Source: Enterobacteria phage KhF3 | Length of the DNA: 64,000 nucleotides | Sequence record: KT184315.1 | Strand: one strand, 5' to 3' | In this document: piece after piece, positions 58,652-62,755 of the stretch | Position numbering within the stretch: the stretch's first letter is position 1 | Layout: every line of letters begins with the position of its first letter | Notes under the pieces: generated by a model | Seen by the model: the letters and a program-made list of their open reading frames with translations, nothing else | What the model was told of the DNA's origin: nothing | Database searches by the model: none | Translations under genes and position numbers: made by a program

Positions 58652-58828
58652 TTACTTATTAAACATTTTACCAGAACCACCACAAATAGGGCAACAACCT
58701 GCTCTTGTATACCCTTCTCCGTTACAGTAGTCACACTTTTTGTGTTCTGCAAAGTACTTACAAAGAAGGCAAACAAATATTGCTACACTACCAAGTGACA
58801 GTAAAATTTCTATCCAATATGCTTGCAT
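58652..58828 (-). CDS. Unannotated small ORF: membrane-anchored zinc-ribbon protein (58 aa)
   Basis: MQAYWIEILLSLGSVAIFVCLLCKYFAEHKKCDYCNGEGYTRAGCCPICGGSGKMFNK; GAGAGGTGAG RBS; below track size cut-off. Confidence 0.4.
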   Translation of the reverse strand: MQAYWIEILLSLGSVAIFVCLLCKYFAEHKKCDYCNGEGYTRAGCCPICGGSGKMFNK

Positions 58829-59145
58829 GACTCACCTCTCATGTTTTTGTAAAGGATAAAGCTTCTGTCATGAACGATACTTGTAGATACTGCAAAGTTA
58901 CTTTCAAGCATCTGTTTGTTTGGATTGTAGAAGCTTTTTTTAAACTCGTCAAGCGCAAACTGGTGATGTTGTGGAAGACCTTTTACACAAACCTTTATTG
59001 TGATTGCTGCTGCAACCTTTCCAGTCAGTTCTTCTTTAGCTGCTACTAAAATTTTGTTGAGGAACTTATGACCATCTTCAGTCTTCTTGATGTTCTCCCA
59101 ACGTTCTTCTAAGACAATGTTGATGTTCATTTCTTTGATTTTCAT
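58810..59145 (-). CDS. Hypothetical protein
   Basis: 111 aa. Confidence 0.45.
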   Translation of the reverse strand: MKIKEMNINIVLEERWENIKKTEDGHKFLNKILVAAKEELTGKVAAAITIKVCVKGLPQHHQFALDEFKKSFYNPNKQMLESNFAVSTSIVHDRSFILYKNMRGESCKHIG

Positions 59146-59159
59146 AGTTTCTCCAGAAA

Positions 59160-59184
59160 TTAAAAAGGCTCCCGTAGGAGCCTC
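59160..59184 (-). terminator. Rho-independent terminator downstream of NAMPT-like gene
   Basis: Minus strand AGGCTCC-TACG-GGAGCCT followed by TTTTT. Confidence 0.6.
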
Positions 59185-59197
59185 TTATCATATACTT

Positions 59198-60979
59198 TTA
59201 AAGCTGCTTGTCAATATTATTTCGAATATCACCAAGCGTTGTGTAACCGAACTGCTCAGAGTCGCTAAAGACTAAACGTAAAGCACAAGCTGGATGTTCA
59301 AGTACATCTGCAAAGCTCTGGAATCCATAGCCATCTACAGCTTTCAACTTATCACCATCCCACATAGGTGCTACACCACCAAAAGCAGACTTCTTAACAC
59401 CACTATCTGTTTTAGGGTCTTTTGCAAGCATAATCTCTTTACCACCAATGCTTGCAAGAGTTGCTTTAACAGCAAATGCAAAGGTGTCACGAGTCATGTA
59501 CTGGTAAGTGTAAGAGCCTACGCCAAACACTACGTTAGAGCTTGCAAAACCCATTTCATACAGACGCTTCAGGATTTCGTTTGCACGTTCCAGCGTGATA
59601 GAGTCGCCATAGATAAGGCCAATGTGCTCATCCAGTACCTTAAAACCTTTAGAGTTAATAGTTCCTCCAAAGATGTTGTACAGTGTCTTAATAGCTCCAT
59701 CAATCTCAGCTACAGGACGTGTTACAACGTTTGCAGAACCAACCATATAAGCGTTTTTCAACAGCACTGTATCAGCAACTTCAAAGTCTTCTCTGTCAAC
59801 AACCATTTCGTAGCCTTCTGACAGTAGCCATCCAGCAATACCATAATTGATGTTTTCAAGCTTCATGTTCAGAACAGCATTCAACATTGTGTCGCTGGCT
59901 TCCAGCTTGCTAAGGTGCTCATAATAAGCCTTTTTAGCACATTCTAAGTGGATTGCTTTATAACCTGTGACAATATGTACAGGGTCTCCAGAGTCAGGGC
60001 GAATTACCAGTTTACCGTCACGTTCCATAATTTCTTTACGAAGTGCTGGTAAGATTTCTGACACAGTTCTCCAGAAGTTATAAGTATCTGAAACAATGCT
60101 TGCAATACCTGTTGGGTAAGTTTCTGTTAAGAAACGACGGAAGGTTTGTAACTCACCTTTAAAGCGTCTTTCTTCTTCAACCAACTCATTACCACCTTCC
60201 CAAGCAATGTTTGCACACATTACAGAGTGCTCAGTGGCTGGTACAGAACTACCAATATCAGAGATTGGGTAGGACTGTCCATAGATTCGTTTAGCCGTGT
60301 ATACAGCAGGGAAGCTATCAGTCCCTTTAAAGCTGGTTAAGTGACCTACAGCGTTAAATGCGTCATCAGTAAAGCCGGACATACCACGCATAGCAAAATC
60401 ATGGCACTGATAAGGTAAATGTAAGTCATTGTCACAAGTAAGGTCAGCCCACTTCTTACAGATGCGTTTGTAATGCAATGCAATAGTTGCAATGGTGCAA
60501 GCCTTCCAAATTTCAGCAGAGAAAGCATCTTCCAGATAACCTGCTACCCAATGAAAACCTGAAACAGTGTTCTGAAAGACAATCATCGGGACACGCATTG
60601 GAACAACTGTGCCTTCTTCTACAGCGTATACTTCAACTGGTAGATAACCTAAGTCGTGAAGTGCTTCCCAATGCTCTCGACCGATAGCATCTTTACCCAG
60701 AACACCATTCATGACTTCTAAGATTTCATCAATGGCTTCTTTTTTATCACGTTCAAAGAAAGTGGCATTCCAGTGGTCTATCAAGTAATCTTTAACAAAA
60801 CGTTGAATACCAAAAGCCACTACACCGTCAATTGCTAAGGGGCTGTTAAACCATTTGTCGCTACGTGGTGTCAGATTGAACATCAAGTACTCTGTTGCGC
60901 TAGGATACTGGTAAACATGACCAGATTTGTAAGCATCTGCATTTAAACCTGCTGGTACTGCATAAAGTGATTTAGTCAT
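59198..60979 (-). CDS. nadV: Nicotinamide phosphoribosyltransferase (NAMPT/NadV) family protein
   Basis: 593 aa; N-terminal AYKSGHVYQYP region and overall length typical of NAMPT. Confidence 0.75.
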   Translation of the reverse strand: MTKSLYAVPAGLNADAYKSGHVYQYPSATEYLMFNLTPRSDKWFNSPLAIDGVVAFGIQRFVKDYLIDHWNATFFERDKKEAIDEILEVMNGVLGKDAIGREHWEALHDLGYLPVEVYAVEEGTVVPMRVPMIVFQNTVSGFHWVAGYLEDAFSAEIWKACTIATIALHYKRICKKWADLTCDNDLHLPYQCHDFAMRGMSGFTDDAFNAVGHLTSFKGTDSFPAVYTAKRIYGQSYPISDIGSSVPATEHSVMCANIAWEGGNELVEEERRFKGELQTFRRFLTETYPTGIASIVSDTYNFWRTVSEILPALRKEIMERDGKLVIRPDSGDPVHIVTGYKAIHLECAKKAYYEHLSKLEASDTMLNAVLNMKLENINYGIAGWLLSEGYEMVVDREDFEVADTVLLKNAYMVGSANVVTRPVAEIDGAIKTLYNIFGGTINSKGFKVLDEHIGLIYGDSITLERANEILKRLYEMGFASSNVVFGVGSYTYQYMTRDTFAFAVKATLASIGGKEIMLAKDPKTDSGVKKSAFGGVAPMWDGDKLKAVDGYGFQSFADVLEHPACALRLVFSDSEQFGYTTLGDIRNNIDKQL

Positions 60980-61024
60980 CTCTTAATCTCTCTCAAAATG
61001 GGGCTTGGAAGCCCCTATAAAGTT

Positions 61025-61921
61025 TTAATCAAGGTTTGCTACAGTAACTTGGCTATAATGTGTTAAGCCACGGTCTTTAGCTTCCCCTAAAGAGTTTGTA
61101 GTGTAGATATGGTCAATACCATTGTCAAGCAAGTTTTCAACATCTTTAGAGAAAATACCATGAGTTACATAGAGTTCCACACGTTTTGCACCTGCTTCAC
61201 GAAGATGTTTGGCTGCTTCTATGAAGGTTCGACCTCCATCACAAATATCATCCAGAATCATGACAGTTTTATCTGTCAAATCAACATCGTCAAGGATTCG
61301 CATACCAGTAATTTCACCAGTCTTAAGGTTACGCACCTTAGACATTGTGATGTATGGTTTATCCACCTCTTTAGCAGTCTCTGCAATCTTCTTAGCAGCA
61401 CCTGCATCTGGGGCTACTAAGTAATCAATCAGTGGGTCATTTGCGTAGTGAACTGCAATCTCCTTTTGAGGAATACTCTGGAAGCAGTTAAACAGGTTAT
61501 CTGGAACGTAACTGTGAGGGTCAACTGCACAGACTGCACCAAATCCCATTGCATTTACCTGTTTAGCAAAAACCTTTAAAGCTGCTGCGTCGCCTTTAAA
61601 CATGTGACGGTCATAACGTGCATTTGGTAAGTAGTAAAAGATGACAGTCTTTAAAGCATAATCATGAGGAATTAAATCATCAATTGCTTCTTTAGCAAGT
61701 GCCACAGCAAATAATGTATCCTTATCATAACCTTTTACAATCATAATCACATTGTTGATGGATGATGCTGCATAAGCAGTGAAATCAACAAACTCTGGAG
61801 AAAAGTGTCCACCAATCTCACCAGAAGGAAATTGGATGATGTTAAACTCTTCTTCATGAGTTCCTTTAGTTGGTGAATGAACTGTAACACGGATAGATGT
61901 TTTCATAGTTTTCTCTCTCAA
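61025..61921 (-). CDS. Ribose-phosphate pyrophosphokinase (Prs)-like protein
   Basis: PRPP-binding loop MILDDICDGGRTF; 298 aa; adjacent to NAMPT-like gene. Confidence 0.65.
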   Translation of the reverse strand: MREKTMKTSIRVTVHSPTKGTHEEEFNIIQFPSGEIGGHFSPEFVDFTAYAASSINNVIMIVKGYDKDTLFAVALAKEAIDDLIPHDYALKTVIFYYLPNARYDRHMFKGDAAALKVFAKQVNAMGFGAVCAVDPHSYVPDNLFNCFQSIPQKEIAVHYANDPLIDYLVAPDAGAAKKIAETAKEVDKPYITMSKVRNLKTGEITGMRILDDVDLTDKTVMILDDICDGGRTFIEAAKHLREAGAKRVELYVTHGIFSKDVENLLDNGIDHIYTTNSLGEAKDRGLTHYSQVTVANLD

Positions 61922-62196
61922 TCAAAAGTTACGTTTGTTACTGCCATTGCAGATTTGCATTTTGCAGGGTCTACAACGTGATAAAGTACACTACAGTTAC
62001 CTGTGCTGTCTGGTACAGGTTTAACCCATTGTTGCTTGACAGTTGGTTCGCCTAAGTCTTTGTAAGAACCATCTGTAAAGTTGTTTACCATCTCAAGTGC
62101 AATTGGCTCTGGAACATGACCACGTATCATGTACATTTCACAACCATTACCTCCTTCACTGACTAATGGTAAAATCTCCCACTTTTCTTTAGCCAT
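61918..62196 (-). CDS. Hypothetical protein
   Basis: 92 aa. Confidence 0.4.
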   Translation of the reverse strand: MAKEKWEILPLVSEGGNGCEMYMIRGHVPEPIALEMVNNFTDGSYKDLGEPTVKQQWVKPVPDSTGNCSVLYHVVDPAKCKSAMAVTNVTFD

Positions 62197-62704
62197 TATA
62201 AGTTGCCCTATAAACTGTCTCGAACTTCAACAGGAGAGATATTGCCAAATCTGTATAGTTGTTGTCAAGCACATCTGGCATATTATTTTTGATATATTTC
62301 TCTTGCTCTTCATAGGTCATCTTAGGGATACTTAGGAGGCTATCTCCTTGCTTCTGGTTATCAGTTTTAGTTTGGATAAACCAGTTTGCACAGTGATGTT
62401 CACCACCTTTTGTAACAGGTTTGTGATGACCTAATGTAAATGTTTGCTTACCCGTATACCTGCAAAGATTGTTCAGTGTTGCAATGGTGTTCTTCACAAC
62501 ACACCATTCATACAGGTTATCTATTGTGTAGTGTGGGTAATAACGGACAAGTGCTCTTTCACGGAAGTTATCACGATTCCAAAGAACCATGTGATTAGAA
62601 TTTGAAGGGTCATATTTGTGGGAGTCTATAAACTCTTGACGCTCATCAAAGCTGAGTCTTAGAACTGACATTGCAACCGAACGTTTCAGGTTTGACAGAT
62701 ACAT
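62189..62704 (-). CDS. Hypothetical protein, possible HNH-type nuclease
   Basis: GHHKPVTKGGEHHCANW region resembles HNH His/Asn spacing; weak. Confidence 0.3.
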   Translation of the reverse strand: MYLSNLKRSVAMSVLRLSFDERQEFIDSHKYDPSNSNHMVLWNRDNFRERALVRYYPHYTIDNLYEWCVVKNTIATLNNLCRYTGKQTFTLGHHKPVTKGGEHHCANWFIQTKTDNQKQGDSLLSIPKMTYEEQEKYIKNNMPDVLDNNYTDLAISLLLKFETVYRATYNG

Positions 62705-62755
62705 TTTACCTCCAAAATAAAAAGGGAACCTTTACAGTCCCCTTATAGTATCTGT

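Follow-up and report, generated by a model that had tools for sequence, protein, structure and literature searches.

A probable NARP1 operon for NAD+ reconstitution in Enterobacteria phage KhF3

Two neighboring genes of Enterobacteria phage KhF3 were assigned, with a probability of about 0.92, to the NARP1 operon (NAD+ reconstitution pathway 1) of Felixounavirus. The genes, i.e., adps and namat, lie in the window, which is the whole stretch of 64,000 nucleotides that was analysed (KT184315.1). The pathway is already known and was discovered with this operon in a phage of the same genus. NARP1 was defined by deletion of the Bas63 genes 79-80, which encode Adps and Namat (Osterman et al. 2024; bioRxiv 10.1101/2024.02.11.579819).

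Gene pair and genome setting

The first-pass annotation had placed a NAMPT-like gene (59198-60979) next to a Prs-like gene (61025-61921), giving no strand. ORFs were found at these coordinates, both on the minus strand. The features of the locus are listed below.

61025..61906, minus strand: adps (Prs-like), 293 aa; Pfam, phrog_619 and identity to Bas63 gp79
59198..60979, minus strand: namat (NAMPT-like), 593 aa; identity to Bas63 gp80, fold and motifs
61000..61015, minus strand: intergenic stem-loop, GGGGCU-UCCA-AGCCCC followed by AUUUUG; sequence reading and fold energy
59163..59186, minus strand: intrinsic terminator, end of the transcription unit; stem and U-run
50929..51714, minus strand: Poa1p-like Macro-domain protein, 261 aa; PF01661 and phrog_335

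The window genome belongs to Felixounavirus (Felix O1-like coliphage); phages KhF2 and LMP25 match it with a nucleotide identity of 98.5%. The published definition of NARP1 membership is an Adps-clade gene and a Namat-clade gene near each other (the papers allow ≤10 genes), with adps typically upstream. In the window, the two intact genes follow each other on one strand, adps first, across a gap of 45 bp, as in Bas63 79-80. The gene order also follows Bas63, i.e., rIIB, rIIA, two small genes, namat and adps, and on to nrdG. The gene pair was found in 258 phage records at 80-99% nucleotide identity. Judged by the sequences, this conservation, together with the purifying selection described below, is far beyond chance.

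Read from the TTG at 61921, a codon overlapping the stop of the gene upstream, the Prs-like ORF comprises 298 aa. Translation more likely begins at the ATG at 61906 (293 aa); this start is the annotated one in Bas63, and GAGAGAG stands ahead of it. The strong terminator begins 12 nt past the namat stop and has a 10-bp stem with 5 G-C pairs before the U-run (fold energy -17.6 kcal/mol, z = -2.65). The stem-loop at 61000-61015 (-12.7 kcal/mol, z = -2.0) comes after the stop codon of adps and ahead of the ribosome-binding region of namat; it may act as a weak attenuator or serve stability. In relatives, an HNH homing endonuclease gene occurs at the adps/namat junction.

The four flanking genes (62189-62704, 61918-62196, 58810-59145, and 58652-58828) matched PHROGs of unknown function only. 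An accessory gene within the operon, i.e., a Macro Adpp or a RyR RyDEP, was rejected on this ground. One 171-aa flanking protein shows weak similarity to HNH endonucleases.

Enzyme signatures of Adps and Namat

The profile searches and the active-site comparison with canonical Prs and NAMPT, which had been proposed as a check, recovered the signatures of Adps and Namat. The Prs-like protein matched Pribosyltran and Pribosyl_synth in Pfam, phrog_619 (E=5e-97) and Prs entries of the PDB (best E=4e-18). Its identity is 100% to the counterpart in phage KhF2 and 78% to Bas63 gp79. By pairwise identity, bit scores and NCBIfam cut-offs, it resembles characterised Adps more than it does canonical Prs: the comparison with ICP1 Adps gave 37% identity and 116 bits, that with E. 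coli Prs 29% and 61 bits.

The PRPP-binding loop reported earlier does occur in this protein: in the 293-aa form, residues 214-227 read VMILDDICDGGRTF. In ICP1 Adps, the signature consists of the catalytic beta-hairpin lysine K185 (K162 in SpbetaL1), the acceptor residues R87, H121, D161, D212, D213, and D216, the phenylalanine F18 of the neighboring protomer and a remodelled PP loop that opens with Cys (PMC13586617). By alignment, the family residues F26, R97, H131, D167, catalytic K190, D219, D220, C222, and D223 are present in the window protein, in which the PP loop reads DDICD and starts at C222-D223. The adenine contact F92 of ICP1 aligns with M102, next to F103; this position is variable in other Adps homologs too. 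The C-terminal alpha11-alpha12 helices of Prs, i.e., the filament/regulatory module, are absent, and in the alignment the protein stops about 22 residues short of the C-terminus of E. coli Prs.

The Adps of SpbetaL1, ICP1 and DyoEdafos convert ADPR and ATP to ADPR-PP and AMP and form no PRPP from ribose-5-phosphate (bioRxiv 10.1101/2024.02.11.579819; PMC13586617). By analogy with these three homologs, the window protein is predicted to be the ADP-ribose pyrophosphokinase Adps. The homologs from which the activities of both enzymes are taken are 30-40% identical.

The NAMPT-like protein matched NAPRTase (E=3e-35) and NAMPT_N in Pfam, phrog_448 (E=4e-202) and the solved Namat structures (E=2e-128), and it is 99% identical to Bas63 gp80 (586/593 residues). 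Its AlphaFold model (pLDDT 93.4) has its nearest matches, in sequence and in fold, in the SpbetaL1 crystal structures 9w5x and 9w5w, with a TM score of 0.95 to 9w5x.

Two adenine-binding elements distinguish Namat. The SCH consensus is GS-X-Phi1-X-Phi2-X-Phi3-TRD, in which aromatics at motif positions 3 and 7 stack on adenine; the SCL, in the beta1-beta2 loop, has Arg, Lys or Tyr as its third residue, and with Lys or Tyr the fourth residue stacks (PMC12774641). In the window protein, the SCH motif is G488-S-Y490-T-Y-Q-Y494-M-T-R-D498 (GSYTYQYMTRD), with aromatics at both positions. The same site reads GAQTYQRNTRD in the genuine Nampt HdNadV, with Q and R at positions 3 and 7, which are G and K in Xcc Nampt. 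The SCL is R39-S40-D41-K42-W43, identical to that of Bas63, which is the published Lys example (PMC12774641).

The catalytic core of SpbetaL1 Namat comprises D13, Y15, F189, R192, D215, the catalytic His, R306, and D308 (PMC12774641). In a 31-sequence alignment, D15, Y17, F195, R198, D221, H251, R327, and D329 of the window protein were invariant. S190 of SpbetaL1, an NMN phosphate contact, is replaced by A196 in the window and in Bas63. SpbetaL1 Namat favours ADPR-PP over PRPP and forms NAD+ directly (PMC12774641; bioRxiv 10.1101/2024.02.11.579819). The window protein is thus predicted, from its homologs, to be the nicotinamide ADP-ribose transferase Namat with the same preference.

The other role considered for the pair in the first-pass annotation was a supply of PRPP for NMN synthesis, i.e., classical salvage, in which the Prs-like protein makes PRPP, the NAMPT-like protein makes NMN and host NadR/PncC-dependent routes finish NAD+. 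The family names in Pfam, PHROG and NCBIfam point that way, as do the GenBank annotations of all relatives, which are salvage enzyme names. Moreover, at 468.7 bits the NAMPT-like protein clears the NCBIfam equivalog cut-off for nicotinate phosphoribosyltransferase (405 bits). The Prs-like protein, however, passes the generic TIGR01251 subfamily threshold only; it falls below every NCBIfam Prs equivalog cut-off, e.g., 103.7 vs 296 bits, and lacks the regulatory C-terminus of Prs. In vitro, SpbetaL1 Adps was judged not to be a Prs when ribose-5-phosphate or ADPR was given with ATP (Fig. 2D of that study), ADPR-PP was made from ADPR and ATP, and Namat offered both substrates produced NAD+ only (bioRxiv 10.1101/2024.02.11.579819). 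In the window proteins, the PP loop is that of Adps and the adenine clamp that of Namat. Plain salvage by a Prs and a Nampt was therefore rejected by the published genetics and biochemistry together with the family signatures, and this explanation is very improbable. A minor salvage contribution by Namat may still be made, since the enzyme keeps some PRPP-dependent NMN synthesis in vitro (PMC12774641).

Proposed pathway and related systems

In the NARP1 reading, a host defence NADase of the SIR2, TIR or SEFIR type would cleave NAD+ to ADP-ribose and nicotinamide. Adps would pyrophosphorylate ADP-ribose at the 1'' hydroxyl of its terminal ribose with the beta,gamma-pyrophosphate of ATP, yielding ADPR-pyrophosphate and AMP. 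By Nampt-type chemistry, Namat would then let nicotinamide displace the pyrophosphate of ADPR-PP, and the adenine-binding selectivity clamp would give its preference for ADPR-PP over PRPP. The end product would be NAD+ itself, so an NMN adenylyltransferase would not be needed, and enough NAD+ would be kept for phage replication to be completed.

The absence of an NMN adenylyltransferase, noted at first reading, held in the Pfam search. No match to CTP_transf/NMNAT, NadR, Nudix or RyR was obtained among the 64 non-structural ORFs of the window, i.e., the ORFs other than the 28 structural ones at 4.6-27.5 kb. Of the 26 families in one of the scans, one ranked below E=7e-4, outside the matches listed. 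No NMN adenylyltransferase or Nudix gene is annotated in the complete genome of Bas63, a close relative, either. Pfam scans of the same 64 ORFs gave no match to Nmnat, Nudix, NadR or PnuC, and NARP2 and NARP3 were rejected on this ground.

The expected anti-defence phenotype comes from published work on Bas63, on FADO and on heterologous expression. Bas63 with genes 79-80 deleted was sensitive to SIR2-HerA, formed ~20-fold fewer plaques and showed deeper NAD+ depletion; ADPR-PP was found in infected cells only when wild-type phage met the defence system; and neither pncC nor nadR of the host was needed for the effect (bioRxiv 10.1101/2024.02.11.579819). Because of this independence, direct NAD+ synthesis is deduced for Bas63. 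Loss of the operon also sensitises FADO to DSR2 (bioRxiv 10.1101/2024.02.11.579819). The proposal that the gene pair counters NAD+-depleting immunity thus has a published precedent in genes whose products are 99% and 78% identical to the window proteins. Between the two roles first suggested, direct rebuilding of NAD+ from ADP-ribose agrees with the Bas63 genetics and with the signatures, whereas the supply of PRPP for NMN is contradicted by the papers.

Bas63 (Escherichia phage JohannRWettstein, MZ501086; bas63_0079-0080) shares genus, gene order and neighbors with the window, and its Namat has the same 593-aa long form with an insertion. It differs in the small gene bas63_0081 just downstream of namat, which is absent from the window, and in the first 165 residues of Adps, which represent a different allele. 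SpbetaL1 and ICP1 have the catalytic and specificity residues of both enzymes and the order of adps then namat in common with the window. Identity is ~38% for SpbetaL1 Namat and 30-37% for SpbetaL1 and ICP1 Adps; the SCL has Lys-Trp in the window and Arg40 in SpbetaL1, and the PP loop reads CDGGRT in the window and CDGAAS in ICP1.

E. coli Prs, H. ducreyi NadV and human NAMPT have the same folds and catalytic cores as the window proteins, i.e., the catalytic Lys and the DD motif shared with Prs, and His, Arg and Asp residues shared with Nampt. Identity is 22-29% to bacterial Prs and 24-34% to Nampt. However, the PP loop reads DDICDGGRT in the window and DDMIDTGGT in E. coli Prs, and clamp aromatics stand in the window Namat where Nampt has Q/R or G/L.

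NARP2 (KVP40: Nampt and bifunctional Nmnat/Nudix) and NARP3 (Bas30: PnuC and NadR) have the same purpose, i.e., NAD+ restoration in infection. NARP2 uses a NAMPT-family enzyme as the window does, but in the window this enzyme is paired with a Prs-like gene and bears the adenine clamp of Namat. NrtR-controlled chromosomal adps-namat loci occur in Enterobacteriaceae.

Variable regions, the Macro-domain gene and significance

The first 165 codons of adps form an allele that differs from Bas63, with 58-75% amino-acid identity, whereas the C-terminal half of Adps is 93% identical. The divergent patch at 61420-61960 shows 61-80% nucleotide identity against ~95% in the flanks. Against Bas63, omega was 0.03 for Namat and 0.09 for the C-terminal half of Adps, which indicates strong purifying selection on both genes. 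In the N-terminal patch, the synonymous sites were saturated and dN was 0.24. Two adps allele classes exist in the genus, one comprising 154 records (≥90% identity) and the other 91 (60-80%); the window type is the commoner one. Diversifying selection on this domain was rejected, since saturated synonymous sites with dN 0.24 fit an old recombined allele, and the N-terminal domain is read from these values as such an allele.

It is highly unlikely that this allele shifts acceptor or regulatory specificity relative to Bas63 and makes the pair a functional variant rather than plain NARP1; such an Adps might use ADPR in a modified form or evade an inhibitor from the host. The sharp drop in identity across the patch and the two allele classes side by side in the genus would fit such a change, and so would the position of the patch, which spans the N-terminal domain that provides the hexamer core and the adenine contacts for ADPR in ICP1 Adps (PMC13586617). 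On the other hand, the family-conserved ICP1 ligand-contact residues are identical in both alleles, and dN far under saturated dS indicates an old allele kept by purifying rather than diversifying selection. Mosaic patches are also ordinary in phage genomes, and another was found in the gene at 62320-62680.

Namat carries an Ounavirinae-specific insertion of ~85 aa at residues ~340-427 (window ~59699-59962). It was modelled confidently, with pLDDT 93-97 over residues 340-430 in the full protein and 84 alone, and no structural match to it was found. Its site, after RPDSGDPxxIxxG, is a hot spot at which other lineages in the 31-sequence alignment carry unrelated insertions. A second insertion of ~15 aa lies at residues 258-272, and both are missing in SpbetaL1 Namat. 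A regulatory or counter-inhibition role of the recombining Adps domain and the Namat insertion is a possibility, weaker than the reading of the Macro gene given below.

The Macro gene at 50929-51714 had not been mentioned in the first-pass annotation. Its product matched PF01661 with 32.4 bits (cut-off 22); the Macro domain covers residues 25-141 and is followed by a C-terminal extension of ~100 aa. The characterised Adpp of Vibrio phage Gary is 27% identical to this protein (E=1e-13), both belong to phrog_335, and weak matches to TARG1/OARD1, DarG and Poa1p were obtained. NARP1-AP of phage Gary is Adps-Adpp-Namat, with adpp between adps and namat (bioRxiv 10.64898/2026.01.28.702374). In the window, the Macro gene lies outside the operon, 7.5 kb and ~15 genes downstream of the pair and beyond the published ±2-gene NARP1-AP screen, and its extension sets it apart from Gary. 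No Macro gene was found among the four flanking genes, i.e., within two genes of NARP1, the distance that defines NARP1-AP. T4-like phages, which are not among the listed Adps-bearing groups, have related Macro genes.

By its family match, the Macro protein is a candidate distal accessory enzyme, i.e., an Adpp-like ADPR-1''-phosphate phosphatase, with a putative link to NARP1. It is tentatively suggested, at odds well below even, that felixounaviruses have an unlinked three-enzyme NARP1-AP, in which the Macro protein would dephosphorylate ADPR-1''-phosphate made by defence proteins of the aRES type and the resulting ADP-ribose would feed Adps and Namat. If this is true, a larger share of NARP1 phages can counter non-canonical NAD+ cleavage than has been estimated.

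The discovery of NARP1 is recent and important: a virus rebuilds a metabolite destroyed by host immunity, and does so via a previously unknown intermediate, ADPR-PP. The present locus adds nothing to NARP1, and the side observations leave its picture unchanged. The practical value lies in annotation. The GenBank names in 258 records, i.e., ribose-phosphate pyrophosphokinase and nicotinamide/nicotinate phosphoribosyltransferase, describe the wrong reactions.

Layout of the adps-namat locus

Two adjacent genes, namat (NAMPT-like) and adps (Prs-like), were recognized with the following surrounding features.

59163-59186, minus strand: strong intrinsic terminator 3' of namat (sequence and fold analysis)
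59198-60979, minus strand: namat ORF, 593 aa (ORF calling)
61000-61015, minus strand: small GC-rich stem-loop followed by AUUUUG in the adps-namat spacer (fold energy -12.7 kcal/mol)
61025-61921, minus strand: adps ORF, 298 aa if read from TTG (ORF calling)
61918-62704, minus strand: upstream genes of unassigned function, 92 aa (phrog_4726) and 171 aa (phrog_3500) (PHROG)
62722-62744: upstream terminator, 5' of the 92-aa and 171-aa genes

The 593-aa protein matched NAPRTase (E=3e-35) and NAMPT_N in Pfam, and phrog_448, i.e., 'nicotinamide phosphoribosyl transferase' (E=4e-202), in PHROG. The Prs-like protein matched Pribosyltran and Pribosyl_synth in Pfam, and phrog_619, i.e., 'ribose-phosphate pyrophosphokinase' (E=5e-97). 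With both ORFs present and both families matched, the NAMPT-like and Prs-like neighbors described by the first-pass annotation were confirmed. Adps is most likely 293 aa long, because the ATG at 61906, five codons past the TTG, is preceded by GAGAGAG and is the annotated start in relatives; the TTG itself overlaps the upstream gene's stop codon. The two genes are spaced by 45 bp. At this junction many relatives, among them Mushroom, VpaE1, VSe11 and skuden, carry an HNH homing endonuclease gene, which splits the match in two. The 92-aa and 171-aa genes may be co-transcribed with the pair, because they are placed between the terminator at 62722-62744 and adps. The 171-aa gene product showed weak HNH-endonuclease similarity (E=2e-6).

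Assignment to the NARP1 pathway

NARP1, in which Adps and then Namat convert ADP-ribose and nicotinamide to NAD+, was discovered in the operon of genes 79-80 of Bas63, i.e., Escherichia phage JohannRWettstein of the same genus, Felixounavirus (bioRxiv 10.1101/2024.02.11.579819). The window Namat was identical to Bas63 gp80 at 586 of 593 residues and Adps to gp79 at 230 of 293, and Adps was 100% identical to the KhF2 protein. Bas63 without genes 79-80 showed an approximately 20-fold plating loss on SIR2-HerA cells with deeper NAD+ loss, the new metabolite ADPR-pyrophosphate (ADPR-PP) appeared only with wild-type phage and the defence system together, and host pncC and nadR were dispensable for escape (bioRxiv 10.1101/2024.02.11.579819). 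Purified Adps of SpbetaL1 pyrophosphorylates ADP-ribose and was concluded by the authors not to be a Prs, and SpbetaL1 Namat makes NAD+ from ADPR-PP and nicotinamide, preferring ADPR-PP over PRPP (bioRxiv 10.1101/2024.02.11.579819). NARP1 as such is already established, having been worked out on a congeneric phage that has almost the same proteins. The first-pass annotation had offered either PRPP supply for NMN synthesis or direct rebuilding of NAD+ from ADP-ribose; the second holds, as the same pair is the Bas63 NARP1 operon. Judged by sequence, the window pair is predicted to act on ADP-ribose, rebuild NAD+ and counter NAD+-depleting immunity.

The profile searches and active-site comparison with Prs and NAMPT that had been proposed found the family signatures in both proteins. 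All conserved features defined by the ICP1 Adps structures (PMC13586617) were found in the window Adps by sequence alignment.

Conserved features in ICP1 Adps and in the window Adps
Catalytic lysine: K185; K190
Acceptor residues: R87, H121, D161, D212, D213, D216; R97, H131, D167, D219, D220, D223
Neighbouring-protomer Phe: F18; F26
First residue of the remodelled PP loop: C215; C222

The PP loop is DDICDGGRTF, whereas that of E. coli Prs is DDMIDTGGTL, and the C-terminal alpha11-alpha12 helices of Prs are missing. The protein scored 116 bits against ICP1 Adps but 61 bits against E. coli Prs, and reached none of the NCBIfam Prs equivalog cut-offs.

The adenine 'selectivity clamp' of Namat, defined by crystal structures, includes a helix motif, GS-X-Phi-X-Phi-X-Phi-TRD, with aromatics at motif positions 3 and 7, and a variable loop in which a stacking residue comes after Lys or Tyr (PMC12774641). 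The window helix is GSYTYQYMTRD (aromatics Y490 and Y494), resembling GSFTYQYNTRD of SpbetaL1 Namat, whereas the genuine Nampt of H. ducreyi has GAQTYQRNTRD and Xanthomonas Nampt has GGALLQKVDRD. The loop is K42-W43, arranged as in Bas63, and the catalytic core residues were invariant in an alignment of 31 sequences. The AlphaFold model (pLDDT 93.4) best matched Namat crystal structures (TM 0.95).

Pfam scans of 64 non-structural window ORFs found no NMN adenylyltransferase, as the first reading had noted, and no NadR, Nudix or RyR domain; none of these genes is annotated anywhere in the Bas63 genome. Because no such third-enzyme domain was found in these 64 ORFs, NARP2 (Nampt with Nmnat/Nudix) and NARP3 (PnuC with NadR) were ruled out. 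This absence fits a pathway ending in NAD+ itself.

Spread of the locus and differences from Bas63

Matches to the 2.9-kb region came from 258 phage records, almost all of them Felix O1-like myoviruses whose hosts are E. coli, Salmonella, Shigella and Citrobacter; KhF2, LMP25 and LF82P5 were the top matches (98.5% identity). Bas63 (MZ501086) was among them, and its bas63_0079 and bas63_0080 lie at the same place, between nrdG and rIIA/rIIB. The region was also present in GU169904 (Staphylococcus phage SA1) and MG065664 (Campylobacter phage A132) at 93-94% nucleotide identity; these records likely reflect an error in the host assignment or coliphage contamination.

Codons 1 to about 165 of adps (61420-61960, minus strand) showed only 61-80% nucleotide identity to Bas63, versus approximately 95% in the flanks. 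Diversifying selection on this N-terminal domain was rejected by saturated synonymous sites (pS 0.75) and a dN of 0.24 against Bas63; omega was 0.09 in the rest of adps and 0.03 across namat. From these substitution patterns, the domain is evidently an old allele moved by recombination. Two alleles, in about 154 and 91 records, are both common in Felixounaviruses. A second divergent patch was observed in the 171-aa gene (62320-62680, 80-88% identity to Bas63).

Two insertions bring all Ounavirinae Namats to a length of about 590-610 aa, one of approximately 85 aa after the RPDSGDP strand and a smaller one at residues 258-272. The larger is predicted with high confidence to form a small alpha/beta subdomain; the published NARP1 papers aligned Bas63 Namat and did not discuss it. 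Bas63 carries an extra 114-aa gene, bas63_0081, directly 3' of namat, whereas the window lacks it (about 59151).

Macro-domain gene and bacterial homologues

50929-51714, minus strand: Poa1p-like Macro protein, 261 aa (PF01661, 32.4 bits)

This gene lies on the same strand as NARP1, 7.5 kb downstream. Its product, for which the Bas63 annotation reads 'putative phosphatase', is extended at the C-terminus by roughly 100 aa. Identity to GARY_182 of Vibrio phage Gary was 27% (E=1e-13), and phrog_335 contains both proteins. The GARY_182 gene instead sits between adps and namat; its product is a demonstrated ADPR-1''-phosphate phosphatase (Adpp), which lets NARP1-AP, i.e., Adps-Adpp-Namat, overcome aRES defence (bioRxiv 10.64898/2026.01.28.702374). 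The published NARP1-AP screen covered two genes either side of NARP1 (bioRxiv 10.64898/2026.01.28.702374), so the Felixounavirus gene would have gone uncounted. That the Macro protein works with NARP1 is proposed as a hypothesis only, and a rather improbable one, because the family also takes in TARG1/OARD1, DarG and Poa1p and is widespread in T4-like phages, a group absent among the Adps-bearing phages listed.

The phrog_12872 profile (547 positions) is matched by Adps at 49-224 and by Namat at 236-534, which points to a fused Adps-Namat protein in some phages.

Outside phages, the closest homologues of both proteins were found on the chromosomes of Klebsiella, Cronobacter and related Enterobacteriaceae. 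In K. michiganensis, the two genes make up an operon.

L008 4211-7491, Klebsiella michiganensis GCA_023685665.1: Prs-like gene, then NAMPT-like gene

This pair has an Adps-type PP loop (DDLCDAGGTF) and a Namat clamp (GSFTYQYNTRD). An NrtR regulator gene (Nudix and WHD_NrtR) is oriented divergently from the operon, which lies between crp/prkB and kefB, in a core-genome context. Repression by NrtR was shown for prs-nadV operons, with ADP-ribose freeing the regulator from their operators, and the reason for a dedicated second Prs was called unexplained (Rodionov et al. 2008, PMC2330246). Bacterial copies, along with a possible housekeeping role, are mentioned in the NARP1 papers, which do not name NrtR. 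By analogy, these data suggest that NrtR-linked operons may serve ADP-ribose-induced recycling of ADP-ribose, i.e., a housekeeping NARP1.
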